Shown in pieces: positions 7,813 through 64,000 of a stretch of DNA of 64,000 bases. The notes under the pieces are model-generated. The model was not told the origin of the DNA, searched no databases, and saw nothing but the letters and a program-made list of their open reading frames with translations. Within the stretch, counting starts at the first letter, position 1. Each line of letters begins with the position of its first letter. The translations under genes and the position numbers were made by a program. The stretch covers positions 13,319,979 to 13,383,978 of the forward strand of contig NC_057753.1 in NCBI RefSeq assembly GCF_004010195.1, in the 5' to 3' direction. The stretch comes from Chiloscyllium plagiosum. Lineage: Eukaryota.

Positions 7813-8367
7813 TATGGTGAATACAAACTAAAGACAATCCAGTTGTGATGGCGTTCACCTCGATCACACTTTCAGAAGCTCCCAGGCCTGCTGGGTATTT
7901 CCAGCATCTTCTGTTTTATATCAGATTTGCAGCATTTTACTTCTGCACATATCCTTAGGACTGAAGGGATCAAAGGGTCTGGGATGAAAACAAGAACAAT
8001 TGCCTCCCTGTATCTCCCAGCTGTGCCTCTCTTCATGTACTTTTATGCAAACACTGACTGGCTTCAATGTTGGGTTTTAATGATAATCCAAGAGTTCACA
8101 TGGTAATGTTTCTCCCTAAGTATCAATTCATTAATTTCTCTCAATTTCACAGCCTGTGGTCTCTCTCACTAATTTTTGTTTTCTGTTTGAAAGGATGATT
8201 TGCAATTAACGGATTCACACAAGACCATATCCAGGTCTGACTGGCATTCTGTTTATCGGAACTGATTTATCAAAGGATCTTGAACATGGAAGGGAAAAGC
8301 AGCGTTCAACACTGGGGGGATACACACCTACTGTGTGTGTAAAAGAATCTGCCAACGTTTATCTGAA

Positions 8368-9069
8368 ATGTCCAAACACCAGTGCAGTCACACAGGAGAG
8401 AGACTGTGGGAATGCGGGGGTTGTGGGAAGGGATTTCTTTACCCATCCCAGCTGGAAACTCATCAGCGCAGTCACACTGGGGACAGGCCATTCACCTGCT
8501 CTGATTGTGGGAAGAGGTTCGCACAGTCTTCCGACCTTCTGACGCACCAGCGAGTTCACACTGGAGAGAGACCCTTCACTTGCTCCATCTGTGGGAAAGG
8601 ATTCACTCAGTCATCCAACCTGCTCACACACCAGCGAGTTCACACCGGAGAGAGACCATTCACTTGCTCTCTATGTGGTAAGGGATTCACTTCGTCATCC
8701 ACTCTCCGGATGCATCAGCAAGTTCACACCGGGGAGAAACTGTTCAGCTGTTCACTGTGTGGAAAGAGATTCACTCAGTCATCCTCCCTGCGGAGACATC
8801 AGCGAGTTCACACCGGTGAGAAACCATTCACTTGCTCCATGTGTGGGACAGTATTCACTCTCACAACTGACTTGCTGAGACACCAGCGAGTTCACACCGG
8901 AGAGAAACCATTCACCTGCTCTGTGTGTGGCAAGGGATTCAGTCAGGCATCCAACCTGGTAACACACCAGCGCGTTCACACTGGAGAGAGACCATTCACT
9001 TGCTCTGATTGTGGGAAAGCATTCACTCAGTCATCCAACCTGCTGAGACACCAGCGAATTCACAAATAA
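8368..9069 (+). CDS. C2H2 zinc-finger protein, 8 fingers, no KRAB seen
   Basis: Eight CxxC..HxxxH fingers with TGE[RK]PF linkers. First in-frame ATG is 8368; the family-type ATG (MEGKS..) at 8286 is one base out of frame. Confidence 0.85.
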
Positions 9070-13599: not shown

Positions 13600-14748
13600 T
13601 CATTTCTGGATGCAGTTAACATCAGCAATAACAGCAGTATATAATTGCTGCTCTTGCAGGTGAAGTTGCTGGTGTCTCAGGAGGTTGTGTGATTGAGCAA
13701 ATCCTTTCCTGCACACGGAGCAGATGAATGGTCCCTCCCCATTGTGAATTTGTTGATGTTTCATCAGATTCTGTTTACTTTTAAACCTCTTCTCGCAGTC
13801 AGAGCATTGAAAGGGTCTCTCATCAGTGTGAACAAGTTGGTGTGTTGTGAGGTGGGATGACTGAGTAAATTTCTTGCCACACAACGAGCAGGTGTATGGT
13901 CTCTCCCCACTGTGAACTCGCTGGTGGATCACAAGGTCAGATGAGTCAACAAATTCCTGTTTGCAGTCAGCACACGAGAATGGCCTCTCCCCTGTGTGAA
14001 CTCGATGGTGTCTCAGCAAGTGGGATAATCGAGTGAATCCTTTCCCACAGATAGAGCAGGAGAATGGCCTCTCTCCAGTGTGGGTGTACTGGTGTTTAAG
14101 CAAATGCTTTCTGCATTTGAATTTCTTCTCACAGTCGGGACATTCAAAAGGTCTCTCATCAGTGTGAACAAATTGATGTGTCAGAAGGTAGGATGAATTA
14201 GTGAATCCCTTCCCACAAACTGAGCAGATGAACGGTCTCTCCCCAGTTAAAGCGCGTTGGTGGTTCAGTAAATCCTTTTTACTTTTAAAGCTCTTCTCAC
14301 AGTCAGAACATTTAAAAGGTCTCTCATCAGTGTGAACAAGTTGGTGTGTCAAGAGGTGGGATGACTGAGTGAACCCTTTCCCACACACTTTACAGATGAA
14401 CGGTCTCTCCCCAGTGTGACTGCGTTGATGTATCAATATATCCTTTCTGCTTTTAAAACTCTTCTCACAGTCAGAACATTTAAATGGTCTCTCATCAGAG
14501 TGAACCTGCTCGTGGGTCCGGAGGGTTGATAAAGCATTAAATCCCTGCCCACACACAGAGCAGGTGAATGGCTTCTCCCCAGTGTGAACGTGCTGGTGTG
14601 TATAGAGGCTGGATGACTGAGTGAATCCTTTCCCACACACAGTGCAGCTGAATGGCCTCTCCCCAGTGTGACTGCGTTGATGGGTTTCCAACCCTGATGG
14701 GTAACTGAATCCCTTCCCACAGTCCCCACATTTCCATGGTTTCTCCAT
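13600..14748 (-). CDS. C2H2 zinc-finger protein, 13 fingers (finger 6 degenerate), no KRAB seen
   Basis: 382-aa ORF starting [14 protein letters not shown] with tandem fingers. Finger 6 ends HQRAL, so the second His is lost. Confidence 0.93.
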   Translation of the reverse strand: MEKPWKCGDCGKGFSYPSGLETHQRSHTGERPFSCTVCGKGFTQSSSLYTHQHVHTGEKPFTCSVCGQGFNALSTLRTHEQVHSDERPFKCSDCEKSFKSRKDILIHQRSHTGERPFICKVCGKGFTQSSHLLTHQLVHTDERPFKCSDCEKSFKSKKDLLNHQRALTGERPFICSVCGKGFTNSSYLLTHQFVHTDERPFECPDCEKKFKCRKHLLKHQYTHTGERPFSCSICGKGFTRLSHLLRHHRVHTGERPFSCADCKQEFVDSSDLVIHQRVHSGERPYTCSLCGKKFTQSSHLTTHQLVHTDERPFQCSDCEKRFKSKQNLMKHQQIHNGEGPFICSVCRKGFAQSHNLLRHQQLHLQEQQLYTAVIADVNCIQK

Positions 14749-15599
14749 AGTGTCAGTGTCCTTAATTCACTCCAGGTTCAATGATTGACTGAAATTGATC
14801 TTGAAAGACAGAACACATTGATGGTCTCTCCCTGTTGTGGATGGTGTAATTATTTTTCATGCCAAGCAGCCGGTTAATGCTCTTCCCACCGTCCATTCAC
14901 TGGAACACTCTCCTTCAGGTGTGTGTGTGTGTCTCAGATCTTTTACTGTCACACTGATGTTTAAATCTTTTCTTACAGATGATGTGTCTTCAGAGGCCAA
15001 TAATATTCAGATTCTGATTAACTGAATGGCTCTGTCAGATTTTGATGTGATGCATTTTTCACCTTCTGAATACCCTGCAAAAACAGTTTAGTATGACATA
15101 TTTAAGAATATGAAAGAAAGAAAAAGGCTATACAGCCTAATTACTCTGCTGTTTTCATGTTTACCCTCCCATTTCCTTAATTTCATCGCCGTCTACTGAC
15201 TTATTTTTCTAATCCCTTCCCCCTCTCAGATTTATCTAGTTTACTTTTGAAGATCTCTCCGCTCTTTGTCGGCACTATTTCCTATAAATTGCACATTTTA
15301 GTCATTCACTGAGTAAAGAGATTTAATATGGAAGCATGCTCTACGTATTGACCCCGTCTAAAACATACAGCAGTTTAAAATGCTCAAGTCAGTTCACTGC
15401 ACAGTGTTCTTAAAAGCCCCAATCTGTTCAATCTTTCCAAAGCCTGCATTATTGTATAAACTCCATCTGTGTCAGTAGAGAAGATGCGAACAGATATACG
15501 TTTCTCTGGGATGCAACTTGCAGATTCTCCCCTTCCCTGGAACAGAAGTTTATAAAAACCAATGTCTGTCGTTCCAGCTCACTGCCATCACTCTCTGCA

Positions 15600-20658: not shown

Positions 20659-22089
20659 TTACTCATGAACTCGCTGGTGGGTCAGAAGGTTGGATGACCG
20701 AGTGAATCCTTTCCCACACTCAGAGCAGGTAAAGGGTTTCTCCCCTGTGTGAACGCGCTGGTGTCTCCGCAGGTTGGATGAATGAGTGAATCTCTTCCCA
20801 CACTTGGAGCAAGTGAATGGCCTCTCCCCAGTGTGAACTTGCTGGTGCATCATCAGGTGGGACGATCGAGTGAACCCCTTCCCACACTCAGAGCAGGTGA
20901 ATGGCCTCTCCCCAGTGTGAATCCTCCTGTGCATACTGAGTTGAGATGATTGTTTGAAGCCAGTCCCACATTGAGAACATCTAAATGGTCTCTCATCGGT
21001 GTGAACACGTTGATGTCGCATCAGCTCCCCAGAAATTTTAAAGCACTTTCCACAGTCTGGACATTCAAAAGGTCTTTCAATCATGTGAACTTGCTGGTGT
21101 GTCAGCAAGGTGGATGACTGAGTAAATCCTTTCCCACACTCCGAGCAGGTGAATGGTCTCTCCTCAGTGTGAAATCGCTGATGTTTCAGAAGATTGGCTG
21201 TCCTAGTGAATCCCTTCCCACACTCAGAGCAGGTGAATGGCCTCTCCCCAGTGTGAATGCGTTGGTGGAGAATGAGGTCAGATGATCTCCTGAATCCAGC
21301 CCCACAGTGAGAGCACCTGAACGGCCTCTCATTGGTGTGAATACGTTGATGGAGCGTAAGCTCCTGGGAACTTTTAAAACCCTTCTCACAATTAGGGCAT
21401 TTAAATGGCCTCTCATCAGTGTGAATTCGCTGGTGTCTCAGCAAGGTGGGTAAAACAATAAATCCCTTCCCACACACTGAGCAGGAGAATGGTCTCTCGC
21501 CCGTATGAATGCGCTGGTGTGCCTGAAGATGAAAGGACTGAGTGAATTTCTTCCCACACTCAGTGCAAGTGAACGGCCTCTCTCCACTGTGAGTGCGTTG
21601 GTGCACAGTGAGGGCAGAAGAATGCCTGAACCTCTTTCCACAGGAAGTGCAGCCAAACAGCTTCTCCTCAGTGTGAACTCGTTGGTGTATCTGGAGAGTG
21701 GATAACTGAGTGAAATCCTTCCCACATTTGGAGCAGGTGAATGGCTTCTCCCCAGTGTGCACTCGTTGGTGTGCCTGCAAGGTGGATAAATGAGTAAATT
21801 TCTTCCCACATGCCGAACAGGTGAATGGTTTTTCTCCATTGTGAGTACGTTGGTGCACAGTGAGAGCAGAAGAATGCCTGAACCTCTTTCCACAGGAACC
21901 GCAGCTGAACAGCTTCTCCTCAGTGTGAACCCGCTGGTGTGACCAAAGGCCAGATGACTGAGTAAATCCTTTTCCACACACAGAGCAAATAAAAGGCCTC
22001 TCTCCAGTGTGATTCCGTCGATGGTTTTCCAACAGGGATGGGTAATCAAATCCTTTACCACATTCCTCACATTTCCACGGTTTCTCCAT
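20659..22089 (-). CDS. C2H2 zinc-finger protein, 17 fingers, no KRAB seen
   Basis: Open frame 20659-22239. First ATG at 22089 ([14 protein letters not shown]) gives 476 aa with 17 intact fingers. Confidence 0.94.
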
Positions 22090-22789
22090 AACACAGGTGT
22101 CCTCGTGTCTGTCTAGGTTGTGAACGGAACACGTGGAGAGTTTCTCCCGCTTTGAATAGTGTGATGCTTTTTTTAAAGCTATGGAACTGGTTAAAGCTGT
22201 TTTCACAGTTAGTGAACTGAAACACACACACACACTCAATCTGGTACGTGTGCTTCTCTTTGTGATTTTTCACTCACAATAAATGGTTGAAATGTTATAG
22301 CCAGGGCAGCACAGGCAACCACAGACAGCAAAGCCCGAATGCAGTGACAATCATGATCTTCCTCTTCGAGCACCTTGGAAAAGATGTTTACGAAACTGAT
22401 CATCAAAAGCGGAGGAATCGGAATTCAAAACCAATAATTCCGATTTTGTGTGCAAACTCCATTGTTCCTCAAAAGTGTAAATCACCAATCCCACAAAACA
22501 CACACCCCTGCGCCAAAATCCAAAGTCCTGGGGCATTTCCCCCCCTCCCTTCTCCACGTCAATTGTATATTCAATCCAATCTCTCTCTAGCCCACCCCTT
22601 ATAATCAGCAAGATAGCTACAACATACGTCCGGCTCCACATATAATCAAGATGGTGACCATGAAAGATGATCACGTTCCGGAGAAGCAGCCTCGGGACTG
22701 GAAACGCTGGACCTGCAAGTTGTTGTTATTGGTCTTTGGGCTATTCATCGGAGCGGAGGGAGAGGCTGCAGCCCTCGGGCTCGCCTGCC

Positions 22790-32900: not shown

Positions 32901-33214
32901 ATATGGTCTGCAATTAGACACAACCCATTGTTCACCACTAATAGTCCTCATGAGCAGCTGTTGATTCTCTGAGACTATTCGTTATCCACCCCTTTGTCTA
33001 TCCAACTGTTCTTCTCTCCCTTTCAGGTCTATTCCCACCTATAATTTATTCCTTACCCCCTTCCCCGTACCCTACCTTCTGCAAAAAAAAAAGCTGTATC
33101 CCAAAACATAAACTCTGATTTCTGTACACAGATGCTGCCAGACCAGCTGAGCTTTTCCAGTAATGTCTGTTCTTGATTCTGATTAACAGCATCTGCAGTT
33201 CTTTCAGTTCTTAC

Positions 33215-33699: not shown

Positions 33700-34150
33700 T
33701 TGAGGTGAGGGTGTTTGAGGAGTTCTGCACTTTGGCAGGAAGAATAGAGAAACAGGATATTATTTCAAAGGTGACAGACTGTGAAGGTTGCCGGACAGGA
33801 CAACTTAGAGGAGTACATAAATCACAGAAACCTAGTGTGTAAGTTCAGTGGGGAATTGGGAATGCAAATGGTCTTTTGTTGCTGAGAAATGGAGTATAAA
33901 TGTAGGGAGAGATTTTGCTAGAAATGTGCAAGGTACGTGTCAGACCACGGCCAGCTTACTGCAAACAGTTTTTGGGGTCCTGTATCTGAAGAAACTGTTT
34001 TGGGGTGCTGTATCTGAGGAAGTAGAGACTGATGTCAGAAGCAATCTGGAGAAGGTTCACTCGCTGATCCCAGAGGTGTGGAGTTACTGTGTAATCTGTA
34101 GAGGTCAGGTCCGTACTCTTTGGAGTTTACAAGAATGAGGGGGGCACATG
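33700..34150 (+). mobile_element. Degenerate CR1 fragment overlapping the ENaC stop codon (antisense to ENaC)
   Basis: ..gcactttggcaggaagaatag.., ..ggagaaggttcact.. and ..tactctttggagtttacaagaatgagggggg match the CR1 copy at 27790-28185. Confidence 0.75.
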
Positions 34151-34339
34151 AAGAGTAGCATCCGACGGATGTGCGGACTCCTCGGCGGGAGATCCCAGGT
34201 TCGGAGAGCGGGCCCAGAGCAAGATGACAGCAAGGGTAATAAGGTCGAAGATAAGTTCCACCATCTCCAGGACAGACATGACAGAAGAGCCGAGCCAGAG
34301 ACTCCATTGGCTTCCCAAGTTGGCAAGCATGACCGCCAC
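34127..34339 (-). CDS. SCNN1A: ENaC coding exon 12 (TM2 and short C-terminal tail)
   Basis: [39 protein letters not shown]. Confidence 0.9.
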   Translation of the reverse strand: MAVMLANLGSQWSLWLGSSVMSVLEMVELIFDLITLAVILLWARSPNLGSPAEESAHPSDATLHVPPSFL

Positions 34340-37300
34340 CTACAGGGGTAGGAGGTAAGGGCAAGACCGGGATGTTAATTGTGACTCCCATCAAAGGGAA
34401 GCGCCCAATGCTTCCTCCATCTCTCCTTCTCATCAGCCCCATACTTCAGAACTCTCCCGCCTGTCCCTCACACCTCTAGGACTTGCGAAAGTGCAACTCA
34501 ATTACTTCGACATTCGCAGATTGGCATTTTAAGATTTCAATGTTTCATTAGACCCCTCGGTCACCTCTCGACGTACACTTCCCTGCCCGTCTGGGCAGAC
34601 CCCCTCCACTCGATGCCCCTATTTCCCGGGGAGAGAGCACAAGGTGATCCCCCGAAACGGATGGAGCAAGAGAAACTCACAGGCAGTGCTGGGGTCTCCC
34701 TCATCGATTTGTAGTTCAGCTCACGGAAAAAGAGATTCAGTTTGGCCAGTTCCTTCCTGCTCCGTAGGGAGAAAGGGACAGGGTGAATAGGTGGTGGGCT
34801 TGGAGAGAGGGCGACAGATGGAAAGACAGAGAGAGGCATTCAGATTGAAACAGACAGACAGACAGACAGTGAGAGATAGCCAGAGAGAAGAAGAGAGAGG
34901 GGGAGTTTCAACATTACTAACCTGTTGGAGGTGGCAGAACGGTGTTGATTCTGGAAGATAGGATTCATCCAGCTCTGCGGATTGGATAGAAAATGCAACA
35001 TTATCGATAGAGAGTGTGTGAACGAGACAGAGAGAGGGAGTATCTGTGAGAGAGTATGTGACAGAGTGAGTTTTGTGTGAGAGAGAGGGAGAGTGTGTGT
35101 GTTCACACGTGTGTGTGTGTGTGTATGCCCATGTGTGTCTGTGTGTGTGAGAGAGAGAGAGATAGAGAAAGACTGCATGTGGCTCCAAATACAGGTGGGT
35201 TTTTAGTTGATTTAATTTCATTAGACTTACCAATGAATTTTTTGATGGCCAGTTTGCATATCCAGCTGTCATTTGATATTCAGTTTGTCTGAAAATATCA
35301 CCAAGAATTAGATTAAATATAATCGCTCTGTACTGATTGTCCGACAGCACCTGCTCCCTCAGTGCTTACCCTCAAACAGTGCCCGCTTCCTCAGCACTGA
35401 CCCTCTGACAGTACCCGCTTCCACGGCACTGACCCTCCGACAATGCGGCACTCCCTCAGCACTGACCTTTTGACAGTGCCTGCCCTCTCCACATTCTGGT
35501 TGAGGCCTGGTTCCGAGTTTGCTTTTACACTCACTTGCATGGTTTCTGACAGATTTTGAAACAACCGAGGACATCGTCTGTGAATTCTTTTGCCAGCCGG
35601 TAATAGCAGTGCCCTGGTGGTGAGAGAGACAGAGAGAGGTGAGCAGGAAGTTCTTTGTTCTGGTCACCTTTGACCAATTCCTGCCTCATCCTGAGCACGG
35701 GCCCAAAACTGTAACCAAGTTCCCTCTAATCCTGAGCAACAGGTACAAAGTCTTGGCCAATTTCCTTCCCTGCACATCAACAGGCCCAAAGCTTTGGCCA
35801 GCTTCCCTTTCGTCCTTCACGACAGGCCTAAGACTATGGCTAAATCTCTTTAGCAATAGGCCCCAACCCTGGCTAGCTCCCATCCCGCCCTTAGCAACAG
35901 GCCCAAAGCCTTGGTAAGTTTCTCTCTCTCCTTAGCAAAAGACCCCAAACCCTCATCAACTCTTAACTCATTCTTAGCGACAAATCAAAAATCGTGGCTG
36001 TTTTCCACTTATCCTTCTACTTATGAATATTCTGACCAACCCCTATCGTATCCTTGTCAATGGCCCCAAACCATGACCAGTTACCCTCAACCCTTAGCCA
36101 CAGGCCTCGGGCCCTGACTAACTCCTGACCCATCCTTATCCTTAAGTCCTAAACCCTGTCCACATACTGTCTTATCCTTAGCAACAGGCCCAAATTCTAT
36201 GACCAAATCCAAGCTTACCCTTAGCTTGGGCCCAAAATCCTTTCAATTACCCTTTCTCCTTGGGAACAGGCTCCAAACCCTGTCCAAATCCCACCTTATC
36301 CTCAACAACAGGCCTCAAAATCCTGACCAAGACACATCTCCTCCTTAGCAACAGGTCATAACGGGCTGTAACTCGTTTTAGGATATGTGACTAACTGTGG
36401 ATGCAATACAGGCCTATCACAACAGGCCTCACTTACCCCAAGCGGTGTGTTTGTTGTAATTGCAGTACTCTGCTCCTGAGGGCAGCGGGTAGTAATAGTA
36501 GGCGCAGCCGCAGCGGGACACCATGGTGAGCTGGAAGCAGGAACGGACGCAAGTCTTTTGGAAGAGCAAGTGGGTGGAAAAGAGAGGAACAATCAGGGCC
36601 TTAGTGCAAAGGTTTGTTGAGAAAGGCTTGGACTGCGTTGTTGAGAGCAGCAACAGAAGGACCAGGAAACTGAGTAACAGGCCAGAGAACCTGAAGTCAG
36701 AAATTTGAAGCTTAGCAACTAGCCCAAGAGCCTGATGCCTAGGGATGCCATCTTCACCAATAGGCTCTGGAGGCTGAGGCCTAACAACATGAACCTCAGC
36801 AATCGGCCCGGGAGCCTGAGGCCTAGGAATGCAACCTTAGTAAGAGGCTGGGAACCCTGAGGCCAATGGAAGCCAGCATCAGCAAATGGCGCAGGAGCCT
36901 GAGGCCTAAGGAGGCCAATTTTTGCCATAGGCCCAGGAGATGAGGCTAAAGAACATGAACCTTCGCAATAGGCCCAGGAGTCTGCGGCTGAGCAATGCCA
37001 ACTTCTGAAAAAGGTGAGAAAGCCTCAGGCCTGGAGGCTTCGAGAAGGACTGAGCACATTATCATTAACCTGTTCCCCAACAATCACCAAATCTCCACAG
37101 ACCGAGATGAGGCAGCAACCCCATGGCTCAGTTACCTGCTGGGTGTAGTCAGATTTGTAGAGATTATGAACTTTCACGTCAGAACCATTCTCTGTACAGT
37201 CACTGTATGGCTGTCCAAGGCGAGATACCACCTCCTGAAACGGGGAGGAGAGAAATAGATCAGAACCAGGCTTGAACAGAGATAGAAAGAGAGAGAAGAT

Positions 37301-40300
37301 AGGGAGGCCGGAGGAGGTGACAGAGATAGGGAGGGGGTGTAGGGGCCAGAGGTGGTGACAAAGATAGGGAGGGATGTAGGGACTGGAGAAGGTTACAGAG
37401 ACATGGAGAGGTGTAGGGGCTGGAGGATGTTACAGAGATAGGGAGGGGTGTAGGGCTGGATGAGGCGACAGATAGGGAGCGATGTAGGGTCTGGAGGAGG
37501 TGACAGAGATAGGAGCTGGAGGAGGTGACAGAGAGATGGAGGGGTGTAGGGTGCTGGAGAGGATTACAGAGATAGGGATAGGGTGGAGGGGGTGACAGAG
37601 AGAAGGACGGAGAGAGAGAGAGAGGCAGTGGCTCTCAATGATGGAGGAGATGAGAGGCTCCCTCTCTCCATCCCTGACCTTCCTCATGCTGATGGAAGTC
37701 TCCAGTCCTGGGCGAACATCAAAGCCACCATCTTCCATGAAGGGGGAGCGACCGCGGGCATGAACCATCATCCGGGCTCCAGCTGCCGTCGACAGAAAAG
37801 GAATGGAGTCATTCTGTTCAATCCTGAGCACAAGGGACAGACCTGGGCATCACAGAGAGAGAGAGAGAGAGGTGGGGTAGAGAAAGAGGGGTGGGGGTGG
37901 GGGAGAGAAGGAGAGAAAGAGAGGGAGAGACAGAGAGAGAGCTTTAATCTATATCTGACCCCATGCTGTCCCTGTCCCTGGGAGTTTTTGATGGGGGACA
38001 GCATAGAGTGAGCTTTACACTTTATTTAACCCCTTGCTGTCTCTATCCTGGGAGTGTTTGATGGGGGACAGTGTAGGGGGAGCTTTACTCTCCAAGTTCA
38101 CTCACCATGGTCTTTTCCAGCCTGCGAGGATTCCCATTGTATGCTGCTATTAATTCCATTGAAGGTGTAACAGTTTCCATAAATTGGATGGTGAAAAGAT
38201 GTGTCAAAACTGGAATTAGTAAGAGAGATGGAGAAATCAGTGACATCCCTCACTCTCCATCTCTGTCATTCTCTGCCTCTCGGTGATCCCGTATCTATCC
38301 CTTTCCCTGTCCCATTCACCCTCGAATAAATCCCCTCTCTCCCTCTGACTCTCTCCCTGCCCTCTCTCTCTGTCACTCCCTTTCTCCATTTTCCCTCCTT
38401 CCTCACCACCCTCTCTCACTTCTCTCTCTCTGTGGTTCTGTGCCACAGAAAGGGCACAGCAGACATGTGGACTCTGTTTAAGGAGCAGTTGTTGCGAGTG
38501 ATGCATGAATTTGTTCATCTGAGACAGGTATGAAGGGGTAAGATTAAGGAGCCTTGGATGACGAGAACAGAGGATCTTCTCATCAAAAGGGAGAAGGCAG
38601 CTTATGTAAGGTGGAGGAAGCAAGGATCTAGCACAATTTTGGAGGATAACAGGCTTGCTAGAAAGGAGATCAGAAATGGACTGAGGAGAGCCAGGAGGGG
38701 GCACGAGAAAGGCTTGGCAGGAAGGATTCGGGAGAACTCAAAGGCATTTTACTCATACGTGAAGAATAAGAGAATGATCAGGGAAAAAGTAGGGCCGATC
38801 AGGGATAGCATAGGGAACTTGTGCGTGGAGTCTGAGCGGATAGGGGAAGCTCTGAATGAGTTTTTTGCCTCAGTTTTTACTAAGAAAATGGGCCTTGTTG
38901 AAAATGAGAACTTTGAGGAGCTGGAATATGGGCTTGAATAGATCAAGATTGATGAAGTTGACGTGTTGGAAATTTTGGCGAACATTAAGATTGATAAGTT
39001 CCCAGGGGCAGACCAGATTTATCCTAGGTTGCTCCGGGAAGCGAAAAAAGAGGTTGCTAAGCCGCTGGTGAAGATCTTTGCTTCCTCATTCTCCACAGGA
39101 GTCATTCTGGAGGATTGGAAGGAGGTGAATGGTGTTCCTCTTTTCAAGAAAGGTAATAGGGAAATCCCTGGCAATTACAGACCAGTCAGTCTTATGTCTG
39201 TGGTCAGCAAGGTTTTGGAAAGTATTCTGAGGGATAGGATTTATGACTATTTGGAAAAGCATAGCGTGATTAAAGGCAGTCAGCATGGCTTTGTGAGGGG
39301 CAGGTCATGCCTAACTAAGCTTATTGAGTTCTTTGATGAGGTGACAAGACAGGTCAACAAAGGTTGAGCAGTAGATGTGGTGAATATGGACTTCAGCAAG
39401 GCATTTGATACGGTGCCCCATGGTAGACTCATTCATAAAGTCAGGAGGTATGGGATACAGGGAGAACTTGGCTATCTGGATTCAGAATTGGTTGGCTAAC
39501 AGAAAGAAGGGAGTGGTTGCCAGGGCTTTGTTTTTGGGCCTCTGCAGTTTGTGGTTTTTATAAATGACTTGGATGAGGAGATTGAGGGGTGGGTTAGTAA
39601 ATTTGAGGATGACACAAAGGTTGGAGATGCTGTTGAAAGTATTAAGAGCTATTGCAGGCTGCAGCATGACATAGACAGGATGCAGAGCTGGGCTGAGAAA
39701 TGGCAGCTGGAGTTCAAACCAGATAAATGCGAAGTGATGCAATTTGGAAGGTCGAACTTGAATTCTGAATATAGGATTAAAGACAGGATCCTTGGCAGTG
39801 TGGAGGAACGGAGAGATTTTGGTGTTCAAGTACATAGATCCCTCAAAGTTGCCACCCAAGGGTTGCTCAGAAAGCATATGGTGTTTTGGCTTTCATTAAC
39901 AGGGGGATCCAGTTTAAGAGCTACGAGGTTTTGCTACAGCTCTGCAACACCCTGGTGAGGCCACATTTGGAATATTGTGTCCAGTTCTGATCGCCCTACC
40001 ATAGGAAAGATACAGAGGCTTTGGACTGGACTGGAGGGTTTATCTTATGAAGAGAGGTTGACTAAGCTTGGACTTTTCTCTCTGGAGAGAAGGAAGAAGA
40101 GAGGTGACCTGATCGAGGTATTCAAGGCAATAAGAGGCATGGAAAGAGTCAATAGGCAGAGACTTTTCCCCAGGGCAAGATTGACTGGGATGAGGGGTCA
40201 AAGTTTTAAGATATTAGGAGGAAGGTATGGAGGAGATGTCAGAGGTAGGTTCTTTACGCAGAGAGTTGTGAATGCATGGAATGCATTGCCAGCGATGATG

Positions 40301-43300
40301 GTGGAAGCAGAATTATTAGGAACATTTAAGTGCCTGCTGGACATGCACATGGACAGCAGTGAATTGAGGGGTGCGTAAGTAAGTTTTTTTATTCTACATT
40401 AGGATTAATCCTTGGCACAACATCGTAAGCCGAAGGGCCTGTTCTGTGCTGTACTTTTCTATGTTCTATGTTCTTTCTCTCTTGCTCTCCTCCCCCACCC
40501 TCTACCCTGTCTCCCTTACCTCCCTCTCTGTCAGAAAACATGAAAATGCTCTAACGCCTGCAACAAGCATAATAACCCTATTTTTCTGGTGTATATAAAG
40601 TCTTTTTAAAAATAGCTAATTATCCGTTCAGTTCCATCAACATCTTACAGCATCAATAGAGCACCTAACCCCTACACCGCTAACATCGATTGCAACTTTG
40701 AAGTGTTTCGAAAATGGTGTAGTTAGAAAAGATGTGTAGATTAATATGATTTTTTAAGTTCCCAAATACCTCTTGACATTATTCTGTCCACCGTAATCTC
40801 GTTTCCTTCTTTCGTAAATCTTTCAGTGGTGCCAACATGCTGCAGAACTTTGGAAATCTTGTGAGAGAATCCGCTCAGAAACAAAAAAGAAAATAAAATC
40901 TTCTTTCAACAAATTTTGTCGTGGAAATTCCTCGACGGCTTTCGGCTTCACGCTGCTTGGGGTCACGCATCCATGCCTGATGTTATGTCCGAAGGTCGTC
41001 AACTCTTCTTTCGTGAATTCTTTTGTCTTTCATTTTATTACCACTTTCTTTTTCGCTTCATTCAAAGAGCTTTGTCCTTTCCATGAAGGTTTAAGGATCA
41101 TCACATCATGCGCATAAACTGTATTATTTCTTAATCCAGCCACAACTCTGTTCATGAGTCTTTGGCAAGTGGCTGGTGTGTTCTTCAAACAAAGAACTTC
41201 ACTTTGAATGGATATTGCCCATTTGGGATTACAAACGTAGAAACTTGTTTTGACATCTCTGATAAAGGAACCTGCCACTAACCACGCAGTTAGTCCAACT
41301 TCCTATTGCTTCTGTCATACCCAACTTTCTCTACGCTGTTCTACAAACTTGGCATTGAACAAGAGTCTGATTTAGATTCAGTGTTGCCCTTCCAATATTC
41401 GACGCAAAATCTTTGAATCCAAGCAGATATCAGTGAACTCCACTCCCTCTGACTCGGTTGGACGATGTCTTCGTTGAGCATTTCATCCACTTGCTAATGG
41501 AGATGTGTGGCTTTGTGAAGTATTGCAAGTTAAGCACGTCAGGGTGTCTTTTTATTGGAACAGTATTCCATCCTTACACGACTTGCACAGTAGCATTAGT
41601 CCTTCTCATTTTATTCCTGCATCTTCTCATTCTGCTGCAAAAAAATTGTCTTTCTGTCTCTCTCTCTCTCTCTCTCTCCCTCACCTCTCCCGACAGGCGA
41701 AGCCGTTGAACCGACAATCCTGGACGAACTCTCCCATCCTCGCCTCGTCTGAGGGTGCTGCATCGAGGGAGATGCGTGCCATGAGGTTCACGTAGTGGAA
41801 GGTGTACCACTCCCTCAGGGCATCCACGCCGGACGAGTGCCAGTTGTAAAAGCAGTCTCCGCCGGTGGAATTGCACTGTGCATGGGGATCGGTGGGGTGT
41901 ATGGAGAGGTGGGGGGATGTGGGGACAAGGTGGGGAAAGGGTGGGGAGGGGGTTAGAAAAGAGAGTAGCTGAAAGCAATTGGGGGAATGCCTCACCCGCG
42001 ACTGTCTGGGGTCTCCATGGTCTGGTGGAGGGCACTGGAAGGCATTACTGTGCCGCCCCACCAGGTCGGTCAACCGGTCGAAACGGGATCCGTGCTCAGC
42101 CGGGAAGAGGTTCTCGGTCAGGGCACCCCTGAACGATCTGAGAATGTTCTCTTCCCCCTCCACCAGAACTTACCAGCTCGAAGCCGATCTTCCAGGAGCT
42201 GTTTCGGGTCAGGGGTGGGTTGTGGGCCCAGGGATCGCCCTCGCCGCCGCCGCCACCCCCCCGCCGGGGCCCGATCTCCAGGGCCGGCGAGCCGTGCCGC
42301 CCCTCTGGGTTGATCAGCCGCAGGCCCAGGCGCCGTGGGATGGCAGCCCGGCGATCCTGGGTGGGTGGCGTGGCTGCTCCATTCCCGGGGCCCCGGTAAC
42401 CGTACAGGAAGTACAGCGCCTCCCGGGTCAACAGGTCCAGTTCCCTCAGGTTGGCACTTACCTCCTTGTACCTGCAGGGGGCACAAATATATTCATGTCA
42501 GGTTTGGTAAGGGGTAGAGAGAGCTTTACTTTGTCGGGAGTGTGGTGCTGGAAAAGCACAGCAGGTCAGGCAGCATCCGAGGAGCGGGGAAGTCGACGTT
42601 TCGGGCCGGAGCCCTTCATCGGATTCCGAAACGTCAATTTTCCTGCTCCTCGGATGTTGCCTGGCCTGCTGTGCTTTTCCTGCAACACACTCTCAACTCG
42701 GATCTCCAGCAACTGCAGACCTCGCTGTCCTCTAGGAGCTTTTCTCTGTATCTAACCCCGTGTTGTCCCTATTCGAGGAATGTTTAATTGACACAGTGTA
42801 GAGGAAACCTCACTGTGTCTAACCCCGTGCTGTGCCTGTCCCTGGGAGTGTGTGATGGGGGGGGCCACAATGTAGAGTAGACTTTACTCGGTTTGCTACC
42901 CCATGCTGTTCCTGTCTGTGGGAGTGTTTGGTGGGGACTGTATACAGTAAGCTTTACACTGTAACTGATGCCATGCTGTGCCTGAGAGTGTTTGACGGGG
43001 GGTACAGTGTAGAGGGAGCTTTACTCTGTATCTAACCCCGTGCTGTCCCTGTCCCTGGGATGGGGGGACAGTGTAGAGGGAGCTTTACTCTGTATCTAAT
43101 CCCATGCTGTCCCTGACTTGGAAGTGTTTGATGGAGAGACAATACAGAAGGAGCTTTACTCTGTGTCGAGCCTGGTCTGTACTTGTCCTGGGAGTGTTTG
43201 ATGGTGGAAAGAGTAGAGTGAGATTTTCTCTGTATCTAACCCTGTGCTGTCCTTGTCCTGGGAGTGTTTGGTGGGTGTAGAGGGAGCTTTACTCTGTATC

Positions 43301-43896
43301 TAANNNNNNNNNNNNNNNNNNNNACTCTGTGTGGTCCCTGACCTGGCAGTGTTCAATGGGGGGACAATGTAGAAACAGCATTACTCTGTATCTCACCCCA
43401 TGCTGTCACTGTCCTGGCAGTGTTTGATGGGAGAGCAGTGTAGAAAAATCTTTATTCTGTGTCTAACCCTGTTCTGTACCTGTCCTGGGAGTGTTTGATG
43501 GTTGGGGGTAGGGTTGACACCGTAGAGAGAGCCTTACCTGTACGGGTTGAGAGTACAGATGGTGACAGCGGGGAACTCTATCTTGCCACTGTGGATCGAG
43601 AGTGAAATTTGAACGGGGAACTGTAGGTACTGCCGACAGATGAGGCCAAACTGCCAGTACATGGCACCCAGGGTGAGTGCCAGGATGGCTGCCCATAGGC
43701 CGGTTTTCATTCGATTGCCCTCAGTACAGATCAGCCTTACCGCCCCATGGATGGTGGTCGTGCTACAGAAGGTGCTCAGAGCCTCAGTGAATGAGGATGG
43801 CATCTTCAGCCAGCTTTTGGTCTCCTCCGTCGTCTTGGCCTCACCCCTCTCCTGGCTCTCCCCCTCGTCTTCCGGACTGCTCTCCTTTTCTGGCAT
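34127..43896 (-). CDS. SCNN1A: Amiloride-sensitive epithelial sodium channel, alpha(/delta)-type subunit; 12 coding exons, 1812 nt, 603 aa
   Basis: All introns are GT-AG with consistent phases. Motifs: TIHG gating motif, [21 protein letters not shown], Cys-rich thumb and TM2 [11 protein letters not shown]. The Ser at the amiloride site marks an alpha/delta subunit, not beta or gamma. Alpha versus delta orthology is not proven. Confidence 0.9.
34681..34756 (-). CDS. SCNN1A: ENaC coding exon 11
   Basis: [25 protein letters not shown], 76 nt. Confidence 0.92.
34922..34974 (-). CDS. SCNN1A: ENaC coding exon 10
   Basis: [17 protein letters not shown](R), 53 nt; phases fit both neighbours. Confidence 0.85.
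35231..35288 (-). CDS. SCNN1A: ENaC coding exon 9
   Basis: [19 protein letters not shown], 58 nt. Confidence 0.9.
35535..35613 (-). CDS. SCNN1A: ENaC coding exon 8
   Basis: [26 protein letters not shown], 79 nt. Confidence 0.92.
35690..37035. repeat. Degenerate minisatellites (unit about 35-40 bp) flanking ENaC exon 7
   Basis: Recurring ttagcaacaggcccaaa at 35690-36430 and agcaataggcccaggagcctgaggcctaag at 36640-37035. Confidence 0.75.
36437..36554 (-). CDS. SCNN1A: ENaC coding exon 7
   Basis: [39 protein letters not shown], 118 nt, AAG acceptor. Confidence 0.92.
37136..37234 (-). CDS. SCNN1A: ENaC coding exon 6
   Basis: [24 protein letters not shown], 99 nt. Confidence 0.92.
37275..37600. 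repeat. Purine-rich minisatellite, unit about 37 bp
   Basis: Repeats of gtgacagagatagggaggggtgtaggggctggaggag. Confidence 0.85.
37679..37842 (-). CDS. SCNN1A: ENaC coding exon 5
   Basis: [29 protein letters not shown], 164 nt. Confidence 0.92.
38106..38209 (-). CDS. SCNN1A: ENaC coding exon 4
   Basis: [34 protein letters not shown], 104 nt. Not in the ORF track. Confidence 0.92.
38530..40472 (+). mobile_element. CR1/HER1 LINE ORF2 3' half in ENaC intron 3
   Basis: [31 protein letters not shown] and FINDLD..KFEDDTK, with a (ttctatg)n tail. Confidence 0.95.
40530..41420 (-). mobile_element. Degenerate Gypsy/Ty3 LTR-retrotransposon pol (RT/RNase H) fragment
   Basis: [24 protein letters not shown] resembles [29 protein letters not shown] resembles the RNase H start. 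Confidence 0.7.
41685..41875 (-). CDS. SCNN1A: ENaC coding exon 3
   Basis: [33 protein letters not shown], 191 nt. Confidence 0.92.
42174..42471 (-). CDS. SCNN1A: ENaC coding exon 2 (finger/GRIP region)
   Basis: ctgcag|[20 protein letters not shown]|gtaagt, 298 nt. Confidence 0.9.
42540..42730. mobile_element. Penelope-like short palindromic element
   Basis: Inverted arms tgctggaaaagcacagcaggtcaggcagcatccgaggag / ctcctcggatgttgcctggcctgctgtgcttttcc. Confidence 0.75.
42735..43530. repeat. Minisatellite, unit about 65-68 bp, in ENaC intron 1; contains a 20-N gap at 43304-43323
   Basis: Repeats of agctttactctgtatctaaccccgtgctgtccctgtcctgggagtgtttgatggggacagtgtagaggg. Further units at 37940-38090 and 44970-45065. 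Confidence 0.9.
43538..43896 (-). CDS. SCNN1A: ENaC coding exon 1 (N-terminus, HG motif, TM1)
   Basis: [29 protein letters not shown](R). Donor AG|GTAAGG; acceptor CAG at 43899-43901. Confidence 0.92.
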
Positions 43897-63370: not shown

Positions 63371-64000
63371 TCAGTATGGTATTGAGCTGTGTTCTTTTTT
63401 ACCATTTGAAGCATTCAGTAGAGATGTGTAAGGACACATTAACATTCTTTTCAGCTCCTTTTGGAACTTGTTCTGGGTTGCCGCAGAGATGAAGACATTG
63501 TTGCAGGAACTGATTACCTGGAGCTTGTTGGGTGTTTCTTGAAGAATGTTCTGCGGGTCTTTGAATTTCAAGCTGCTGGCGTAATGCTCATTAGTAATCA
63601 ATCGGTAGAGGAAGCGACCCATACAGTTGGCCAACAGGGGGAGGAAGCTGAGAGAGATGGCGAAGAGCAGGACGATGGATCTCTTGCGGGTCACCATCTC
63701 TGGATCTTTACCATTCTCACTGCCCCTGAGTCTCTTGCGTGCTCTGCCAGCTAATATGATGCGTCTGCCCGTCAGGGCATTGAGCAGAGGAATGAGGAGG
63801 AATGGGAGAAAGGGGGTTAAGATTCGTTCGAGCCAGTCTAACACCCGCCAGGCAGGCAAAATGTGGAAAGTGAGTGTGATATCACAGAAGCATGGCATCC
63901 CGTCGAGGATATACATAGACTGGGTGTAAATGAAGTAGAAAGGGGCGTTCTTGAAATAGCTCAGGGAAAAGGTCACTGCTAAGACCAGCGATGCAATTTT
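63371..64000 (-). CDS. GPR139/GPR142-like class A GPCR, TM4 to C-terminus (5' part outside the window)
   Basis: WLERILTPFLPFLLI.LLNALT.RRII..RARKRLRG..DPEM..RKRSIVLLFAIS..SSCNNVFI.AATQNKFQKEL matches the GPR139-like receptors expanded in cartilaginous fish. Uninterrupted over this stretch. Confidence 0.8.
   Translation of the reverse strand, partial: KIASLVLAVTFSLSYFKNAPFYFIYTQSMYILDGMPCFCDITLTFHILPAWRVLDWLERILTPFLPFLLIPLLNALTGRRIILAGRARKRLRGSENGKDPEMVTRKRSIVLLFAISLSFLPLLANCMGRFLYRLITNEHYASSLKFKDPQNILQETPNKLQVISSCNNVFISAATQNKFQKELKRMLMCPYTSLLNASNGKKEHSSIPY

Follow-up and report, generated by a model that had tools for sequence, protein, structure and literature searches.

The last exon of an ENaC alpha (SCNN1A-like) gene of Chiloscyllium plagiosum is fused to an antisense CR1-type LINE, which gives the protein its final five codons and its stop and forms the proximal 3' UTR. 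The gene lies within the 64,000 nucleotides of DNA that were analyzed (the window; features in Table 1), and its short end is already present in the RefSeq annotation of the species. As a whole, the explanation that we consider fairly probable is that a deletion in the ancestor of bamboo, zebra and whale sharks produced the fusion and was tolerated because beta and gamma keep their PY motifs (L/PPxY), which would still bring Nedd4-2 to the channel.

Results

Joined, the 12 exons translate into exactly P0009 (XP_043538348.1; C. plagiosum, 603 aa). The product of 34339-34127 (minus strand) matches Pfam ASC (PF00858), and its best relative among solved structures is human ENaC alpha (E 6e-12), with beta and delta at E 1e-4. 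The protein contains the ASC domain, two TM segments, an N-terminal TTIHG and a GSS selectivity tract in TM2. A quick tree of 29 proteins unites the five carpet shark alphas in one clade (SH-aLRT 100), itself within a shark clade (100), and the shark alphas fall inside the alpha/delta clade (100), apart from beta and gamma and outside the delta clade (100); support for placing the sharks nearer to bony alpha or to delta is just 80-86. The carpet shark stem branch in this tree is long (0.33 vs. 0.17-0.27 for the outgroup shark tips), hinting that the entire subunit may have evolved faster. In the same tree, P0094 also joins the shark clade, by a branch as long as 1.22 (support 88); P0094 and P0255 represent a divergent protein of alpha type whose very short tail lacks PY.

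Tetrapod SCNN1A is syntenic with TNFRSF1A and LTBR. TNFR genes gave no match in the window, and none was found on contig C44 among 19 PF00020 matches (150 of 222 candidates scored). The neighbors seen downstream are long C2H2 zinc-finger ORFs (8284-9066, 13603-14766 and 20662-22269, the last of which was run against Pfam). An N gap of 20 bases (43304-43323) falls in the first coding intron and leaves the junction untouched, and a stop-free minus-strand frame of 209 aa at the window edge (63374-64000) has hydrophobic stretches and no Pfam match.

Table 1. Coordinates of the ENaC alpha gene and of the LINE fragment in the window
Feature	Position	Strand	Remarks
ENaC alpha (SCNN1A-like) CDS	34127..43896	-	12 exons, GT-AG at every intron
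Exons 1-6	43896-43538, 42471-42174, 41875-41685, 38209-38106, 37842-37679, 37234-37136	-	
Exons 7-12	36554-36437, 35613-35535, 35288-35231, 34974-34922, 34756-34681, 34339-34127	-	
Last intron	34340..34680	-	absent from the spliced X16 and X18 contigs (joint 34336-34679)
Last coding exon, TM2 part and GSS selectivity tract	34214..34339	-	Pfam ASC and solved-structure match
Host-derived cytoplasmic tail remnant	34145..34213	-	23 aa, one basic residue after TM2; aligns with the tails of outgroup sharks in their proximal part
LINE-derived codons PPSFL and TAA stop	34127..34144	-	antisense CR1-type ORF2 end region; 15/18 bases are the commonest
CR1-type LINE fragment antisense to gene, both ends broken	33722..34144	+	gives stop and proximal 3' UTR
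Tandem duplication of ~28 bp within LINE fragment	33967..34022 (bounds approximate)	+	profile positions 317-345 matched twice
First AATAAA past stop	33045..33050	-	candidate poly(A) signal

The gene in the window is the only intact alpha-type gene found in the C. plagiosum genome. The alpha-like loci on C72101, C45 (two), C18, C21, C99165 and C16927 (L077, L078, L080, L082, L084, L085 and L086) are scattered, broken partial duplicates, most of which carry stops or frameshifts where they match, and all of them leave the last two exons unmatched. A second intact alpha gene was thus rejected as a candidate, the other loci being broken and without the last exon. Separately, an ASC-family first-exon match at G000:C19:68892669-68893181 contains nine stops and is possibly a pseudogene or a frameshifted exon.

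Past TM2 (after LLW), the translation of the last exon leaves a tail of 28 aa that ends in VPPSFL* and contains no L/PPxY, in agreement with the sequence-only reading of this DNA, which had described an alpha-type subunit with a tail of about 30 aa and no PPPxY. Alignment with the SCNN1A proteins of other sharks shows that three outgroup sharks keep a long PY tail, with PPAY in Heterodontus and LPPTY (LPPTYDSL) in Cetorhinus and Scyliorhinus torazame; because these orthologues have the motif, its absence in carpet sharks is a derived loss. The tail comparison leaves out the Mustelus and S. canicula entries, which are partial or mis-ended, and among the matches listed, rays, skates, chimaeras, nurse sharks and wobbegongs are not represented by any alpha that includes a C-terminus. 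Judged from the alignment, the fusion is specific to carpet sharks among the sharks compared. In carpet sharks, the tail can be aligned with the proximal part of the outgroup tails up to the end of a DPxxH(L/V)-like block ~11 residues ahead of the PY motif, where it breaks off, or ~8 residues earlier in an alternative register. We infer that five residues stand where ~44-52 were lost, PPxY and YxxL among them. Directly after TM2 (34213-34240), all five carpet sharks have one Arg where the outgroup sharks have 2-4 basic residues; the alignment points to a further short deletion at this basic cluster.

To delimit the LINE, we compared copies of the element from the genome with the window. A first query (33960-34200) returned a biased copy set, whose members align up to 34142 and run on into more of the element where the window turns to exon. 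We therefore built a junction-free profile that leaves out the window and combines 40 copies from the genome, 29 retrieved by a query that stops at 34085 and 11 by using another copy as query. On the plus strand, nhmmer aligned 33722-33994 to positions 64-345 and 33993-34143 to positions 317-474 of the 885-position profile (E 2.6e-53 and 2.1e-18). The window carries the commonest base in 15 of the 18 LINE columns at 34127-34144 (binomial p 4e-6 vs. an assumed 0.3), and in only 5 of 18 at 34145-34162, indicating that PPSFL and the TAA are LINE-derived. A LINE origin of the H and V just before PPSFL is not supported by these columns. The sequence-only reading was thus right that the end of the gene comes from an antisense LINE, and its extent of 6-8 codons plus TAA shrinks to five codons plus TAA.

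These alignments also bear on a rival account, in which PPSF is an eroded ancestral PY and the LINE starts only after the stop. An automatic alignment does set PPSF over PPAY and PPTY, and the sea lamprey alpha has PPPSF in Table 2 of PMC8791634; however, the LINE match in junction-free copies passes through the stop to 34144 with 15 of 18 bases, and what precedes PP aligns with the DPxxH(L) block ~11 residues upstream of the outgroup PY. The eroded-motif account is largely refuted by these two results, and we regard it as highly improbable.

The LINE belongs to a high-copy interspersed family that is contiguous with a reverse transcriptase ORF. One copy (L089), which aligns to the fragment in the window, has an ORF matching Pfam RVT_1 (E 1.8e-18), and the ORF piece adjoining the LINE has 218,724 first-look candidates in the genome. 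The motifs of the fragment presumably resemble those of CR1. Assignment to CR1 rather than to another LINE clade would follow from these motifs, from the abundance of the RT-linked family and from the dominance of CR1 among shark LINEs; a protein-cluster comparison gave generic RT clusters. In the whale shark, CR1 is the dominant LINE, at 21.78% of the genome (PMC8455134). The profile and the RVT_1-bearing copy thus confirm a LINE at 33722-34144, close to the 33700-34150 interval earlier called CR1, and the family name is a label by abundance and motifs.

The fragment stops at profile position 474 of 885, so that the intact LINE 3' end expected by an insertion site is absent. The sequence-only reading had pointed out that CR1s are normally truncated at the 5' end, whereas this one lacks its 3' end exactly at the junction. 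The missing end is real, the profile continuing for ~410 positions, but it is not by itself unusual: 7 of the 20 other matches to the profile in the window also end before position 600, and a broken 3' end is, by these matches, common in old copies of the LINE. A 5' inversion by twin priming was also considered and rejected, as no complementary LINE 3' piece adjoins the fragment. When the three outgroup tails were run against the window by tblastn, no trace of the ancestral tail emerged (best E 0.38), and a genome search with the catshark protein gave no separate tail match, although a displaced remnant may have escaped its stricter first look. The sequence-only reading had held that a deletion fused the last exon to a LINE and removed the original tail. 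Fusion and loss of the PY tail stand, since the outgroups keep the tail and the window holds no remnant of it; deletion is the likely route only. A deletion that joined the exon to a downstream LINE relic is likely the simplest reading, and an insertion with loss of target sequence, or an inversion, may be alternative origins.

The same ending recurs in other species. Annotated proteins of C. plagiosum, C. punctatum, Hemiscyllium, Stegostoma and Rhincodon end in PPSFL or PPSFF. In the whale shark, two annotated isoforms use different frames in this region and thereby determine its bases, which differ from the window at 1 of the 18 positions that derive from the LINE and, of the 7 just past the stop, at 1 or more; this near identity indicates that the whale shark has the same junction. 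Carpet shark families, except those of whale and zebra shark, separated before the K-Pg boundary (PMC8529718). Because families that share the ending had split by then, the fusion is inferred to be older than ~66 My.

Transcript evidence was sought in four runs, two of which (X16 and X18) are from one related species and two studies; their RNA status was guessed, yet the spliced joint is present in both. In each, one contig covers 33626-34336 with the junction unbroken, and the contigs extend at least 135 letters beyond 33626. Depth over the last-intron joint is 117 (X16) and 1640 (X18), vs. 35 and 65 in the intron. The X16 contig differs from the window at 25 positions, none of them within 34096-34153. 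Because the spliced contigs run unbroken through the junction, the LINE forms 3' UTR. No joint leaves the tail in the X16 and X18 contigs, which show neither strand nor rare isoforms.

These data weigh on the alternative that the ending is an assembly error, or that the mRNA splices to a later exon with a PY motif, two ways in which the fusion could have proved illusory. The data of C. plagiosum itself are uninformative (X21, two partial raw reads of <90% identity from ~2% of the run; X20, one contig of depth 2), and Logan contigs drop rare variants, which leaves this alternative some room. Against it stand the ending annotated in five species and the unbroken junction contigs from two studies of a related species, which together reveal no misassembly at about 34150; these contigs contain no splice to a further PY exon, no PY-tail match occurs in the window, and none of the broken alpha-like loci retrieved elsewhere includes the last exon. 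An artefact is thus largely refuted and seems very unlikely.

Although L/PPxY, the group I WW ligand sequence, is absent, PPSF stands in its place. The earlier description, correct that PPPxY is missing, overlooked that the new end is a PPxF sequence. The LINE event could have removed the PY tail and also written a C-terminal PPxF, a weak WW ligand that was selected and kept for >66 My as a tuned, low-affinity site for Nedd4-2 or its family. PPSF is invariant in all five species (4 of 5 new-end columns vs. 8 of 23 host tail columns; Fisher p 0.13), and the whale shark differs from the window at fewer of the LINE-derived positions than of those just upstream (1/18 vs. 9/27; p 0.034, post hoc). 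In vitro, YAP65 and further group I WW domains accept Phe in place of Tyr (PMC1557994), and PMC8791634 lists the lamprey PPPSF among alpha motifs. The numbers are small, however, and the coding part is no nearer to the LINE than the UTR is (15/18 vs. 274/371; p 0.58); 99 of 354 UTR windows match the LINE equally well, in a UTR set partly biased upward by the query. A single residue follows the Phe, so the PPxYxxL extension is missing, and the pertinent passage of a Nedd4/Nedd4-2 proteome study names only L/PPxY (PMC2824488). We consider a rebuilt docking site unlikely. If it were real, a transposon would have both destroyed and rebuilt a ubiquitin-ligase docking motif.

Discussion

On the deletion reading that we favor, the mRNA would read through the LINE as 3' UTR and encode an alpha without PPxY or YxxL, which would itself carry neither a canonical Nedd4-2 site nor a canonical clathrin-adaptor site. 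The alpha-beta-gamma channel would still be ubiquitinated and internalized via beta and gamma, as proposed for PY-less delta, and the change would be near neutral for surface density. The beta and gamma last exons, the only exons of these genes checked for PY, lie on C21 and encode PPPQY (PPPQYDSL) and LPPTY (LPPTYETL), respectively. The human alpha truncation P619X had no effect on current, which rose when beta or gamma was truncated (PMC7973139), and PY-less delta is ubiquitylated, presumably via beta or gamma (PMC8791634). Because beta and gamma keep PY, the human alpha truncation is inert and delta offers a precedent, we judge it reasonably likely, by analogy, that the shark trimer is still turned over via beta and gamma, and that losing the alpha PY was near neutral. 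The physiological effect in sharks is probably small.

These observations also bear on two of the consequences suggested from the sequence. A Liddle-type gain of function is unsupported and unlikely, as beta and gamma keep PY in this genome and truncation of human alpha raises no current (PMC7973139); the Liddle truncations covered in a review are in beta and gamma (PMC5877673). Nor does a general bearing on elasmobranch osmoregulation hold up, the change being confined to carpet sharks among the sharks seen.

Two observations pull against neutrality. The motif is kept by 101 of 124 TM2-bearing proteins in the first set, and carpet shark entries account for 11 of the 23 that lack it; these counts argue for selection usually acting on the alpha PY. 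The invariance of PPSF and of the stop position in five species may likewise reflect selection on the new end. One selective account is that loss of alpha PY and YxxL stabilizes alpha-only or alpha-rich channels at the surface in a tissue where beta or gamma is scarce, as an adaptive escape in carpet sharks. In stingray kidney, alpha (12-30 TPM) exceeds beta (2-10 TPM) (PMC9396271), the exon contig reaches a depth of 2379 in X18 (a poor measure of expression), the carpet shark stem is long, and seven of seven sea turtles also lack the tyrosine. The long branch fits relaxed constraint equally well, however, and the human truncation is inert in alpha-beta-gamma channels (PMC7973139). Nor do the losses follow habitat: the outgroup sharks, equally marine, keep the motif, and marsupials on land have lost it. 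We therefore view an adaptive escape as improbable.

The losses outside sharks are seen in protein annotations. All seven sea turtle species (P0027, P0218-P0223) have LPSN, LPSS or LSSS for the alpha LPSY that Mauremys, Terrapene, Gopherus and Chrysemys keep. Five Australian marsupials (P0065, P0076, P0214, P0216, P0217) lack an alpha PY: the alphas of bilby, sugar glider and tammar end at one and the same point before the motif, that of the brushtail possum diverges at this point, and the wombat has PPPAC, whereas Monodelphis (opossum) and Dromiciops keep PPPAY. These annotated proteins would contradict a published statement that all alphas keep PY, and they suggest at least two more independent losses.

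A literature search mostly outside subscription journals found no account of the carpet shark ENaC alpha tail, and the passages of PMC11331422 that were searched contain nothing on sharks. Stops supplied by transposons are known, as are alpha-type subunits without PY; the literature searched seems to make no mention of the two together in ENaC alpha, or of the alpha PY having been lost repeatedly. The carpet shark locus offers a dated exception, transcribed in a related species, with a traceable molecular cause. Natural PY-less alphas make the function of the alpha PY, whose deletion has little effect in oocytes, open to testing. If PPSF were indeed a ligand, the sea turtle and marsupial losses would make the alpha PY a repeatedly retuned dial of ENaC turnover.

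With shark and bony-vertebrate SCNN1A, the gene in the window shares the ASC domain, the N-terminal HG, the GSS in TM2 and 12 coding exons, at ~65% identity to other shark alphas and ~50% to bony-vertebrate alphas; it differs in its 28-aa tail without L/PPxY or YxxL and in its LINE-supplied stop. ENaC delta (SCNN1D) is also alpha-type and without PY, but the window alpha lies outside the delta clade and its nearest shark relatives keep PY, so the carpet shark loss is independent of delta. Liddle truncations likewise remove the PY motif from the C-terminus, but in beta and gamma instead of alpha, where the matching human truncation brings no rise in current (PMC7973139). The carpet shark truncation, unlike those, is fixed across species. 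Exaptation of transposable elements in last exons, giving C-termini and stops, is a known kind of event, and here too a mobile-element relic gives terminal codons, stop and 3' UTR. What sets the carpet shark gene apart from such C-termini is that the element is broken at its 3' side, that a named regulatory motif was lost, and that the new end spells PPxF.
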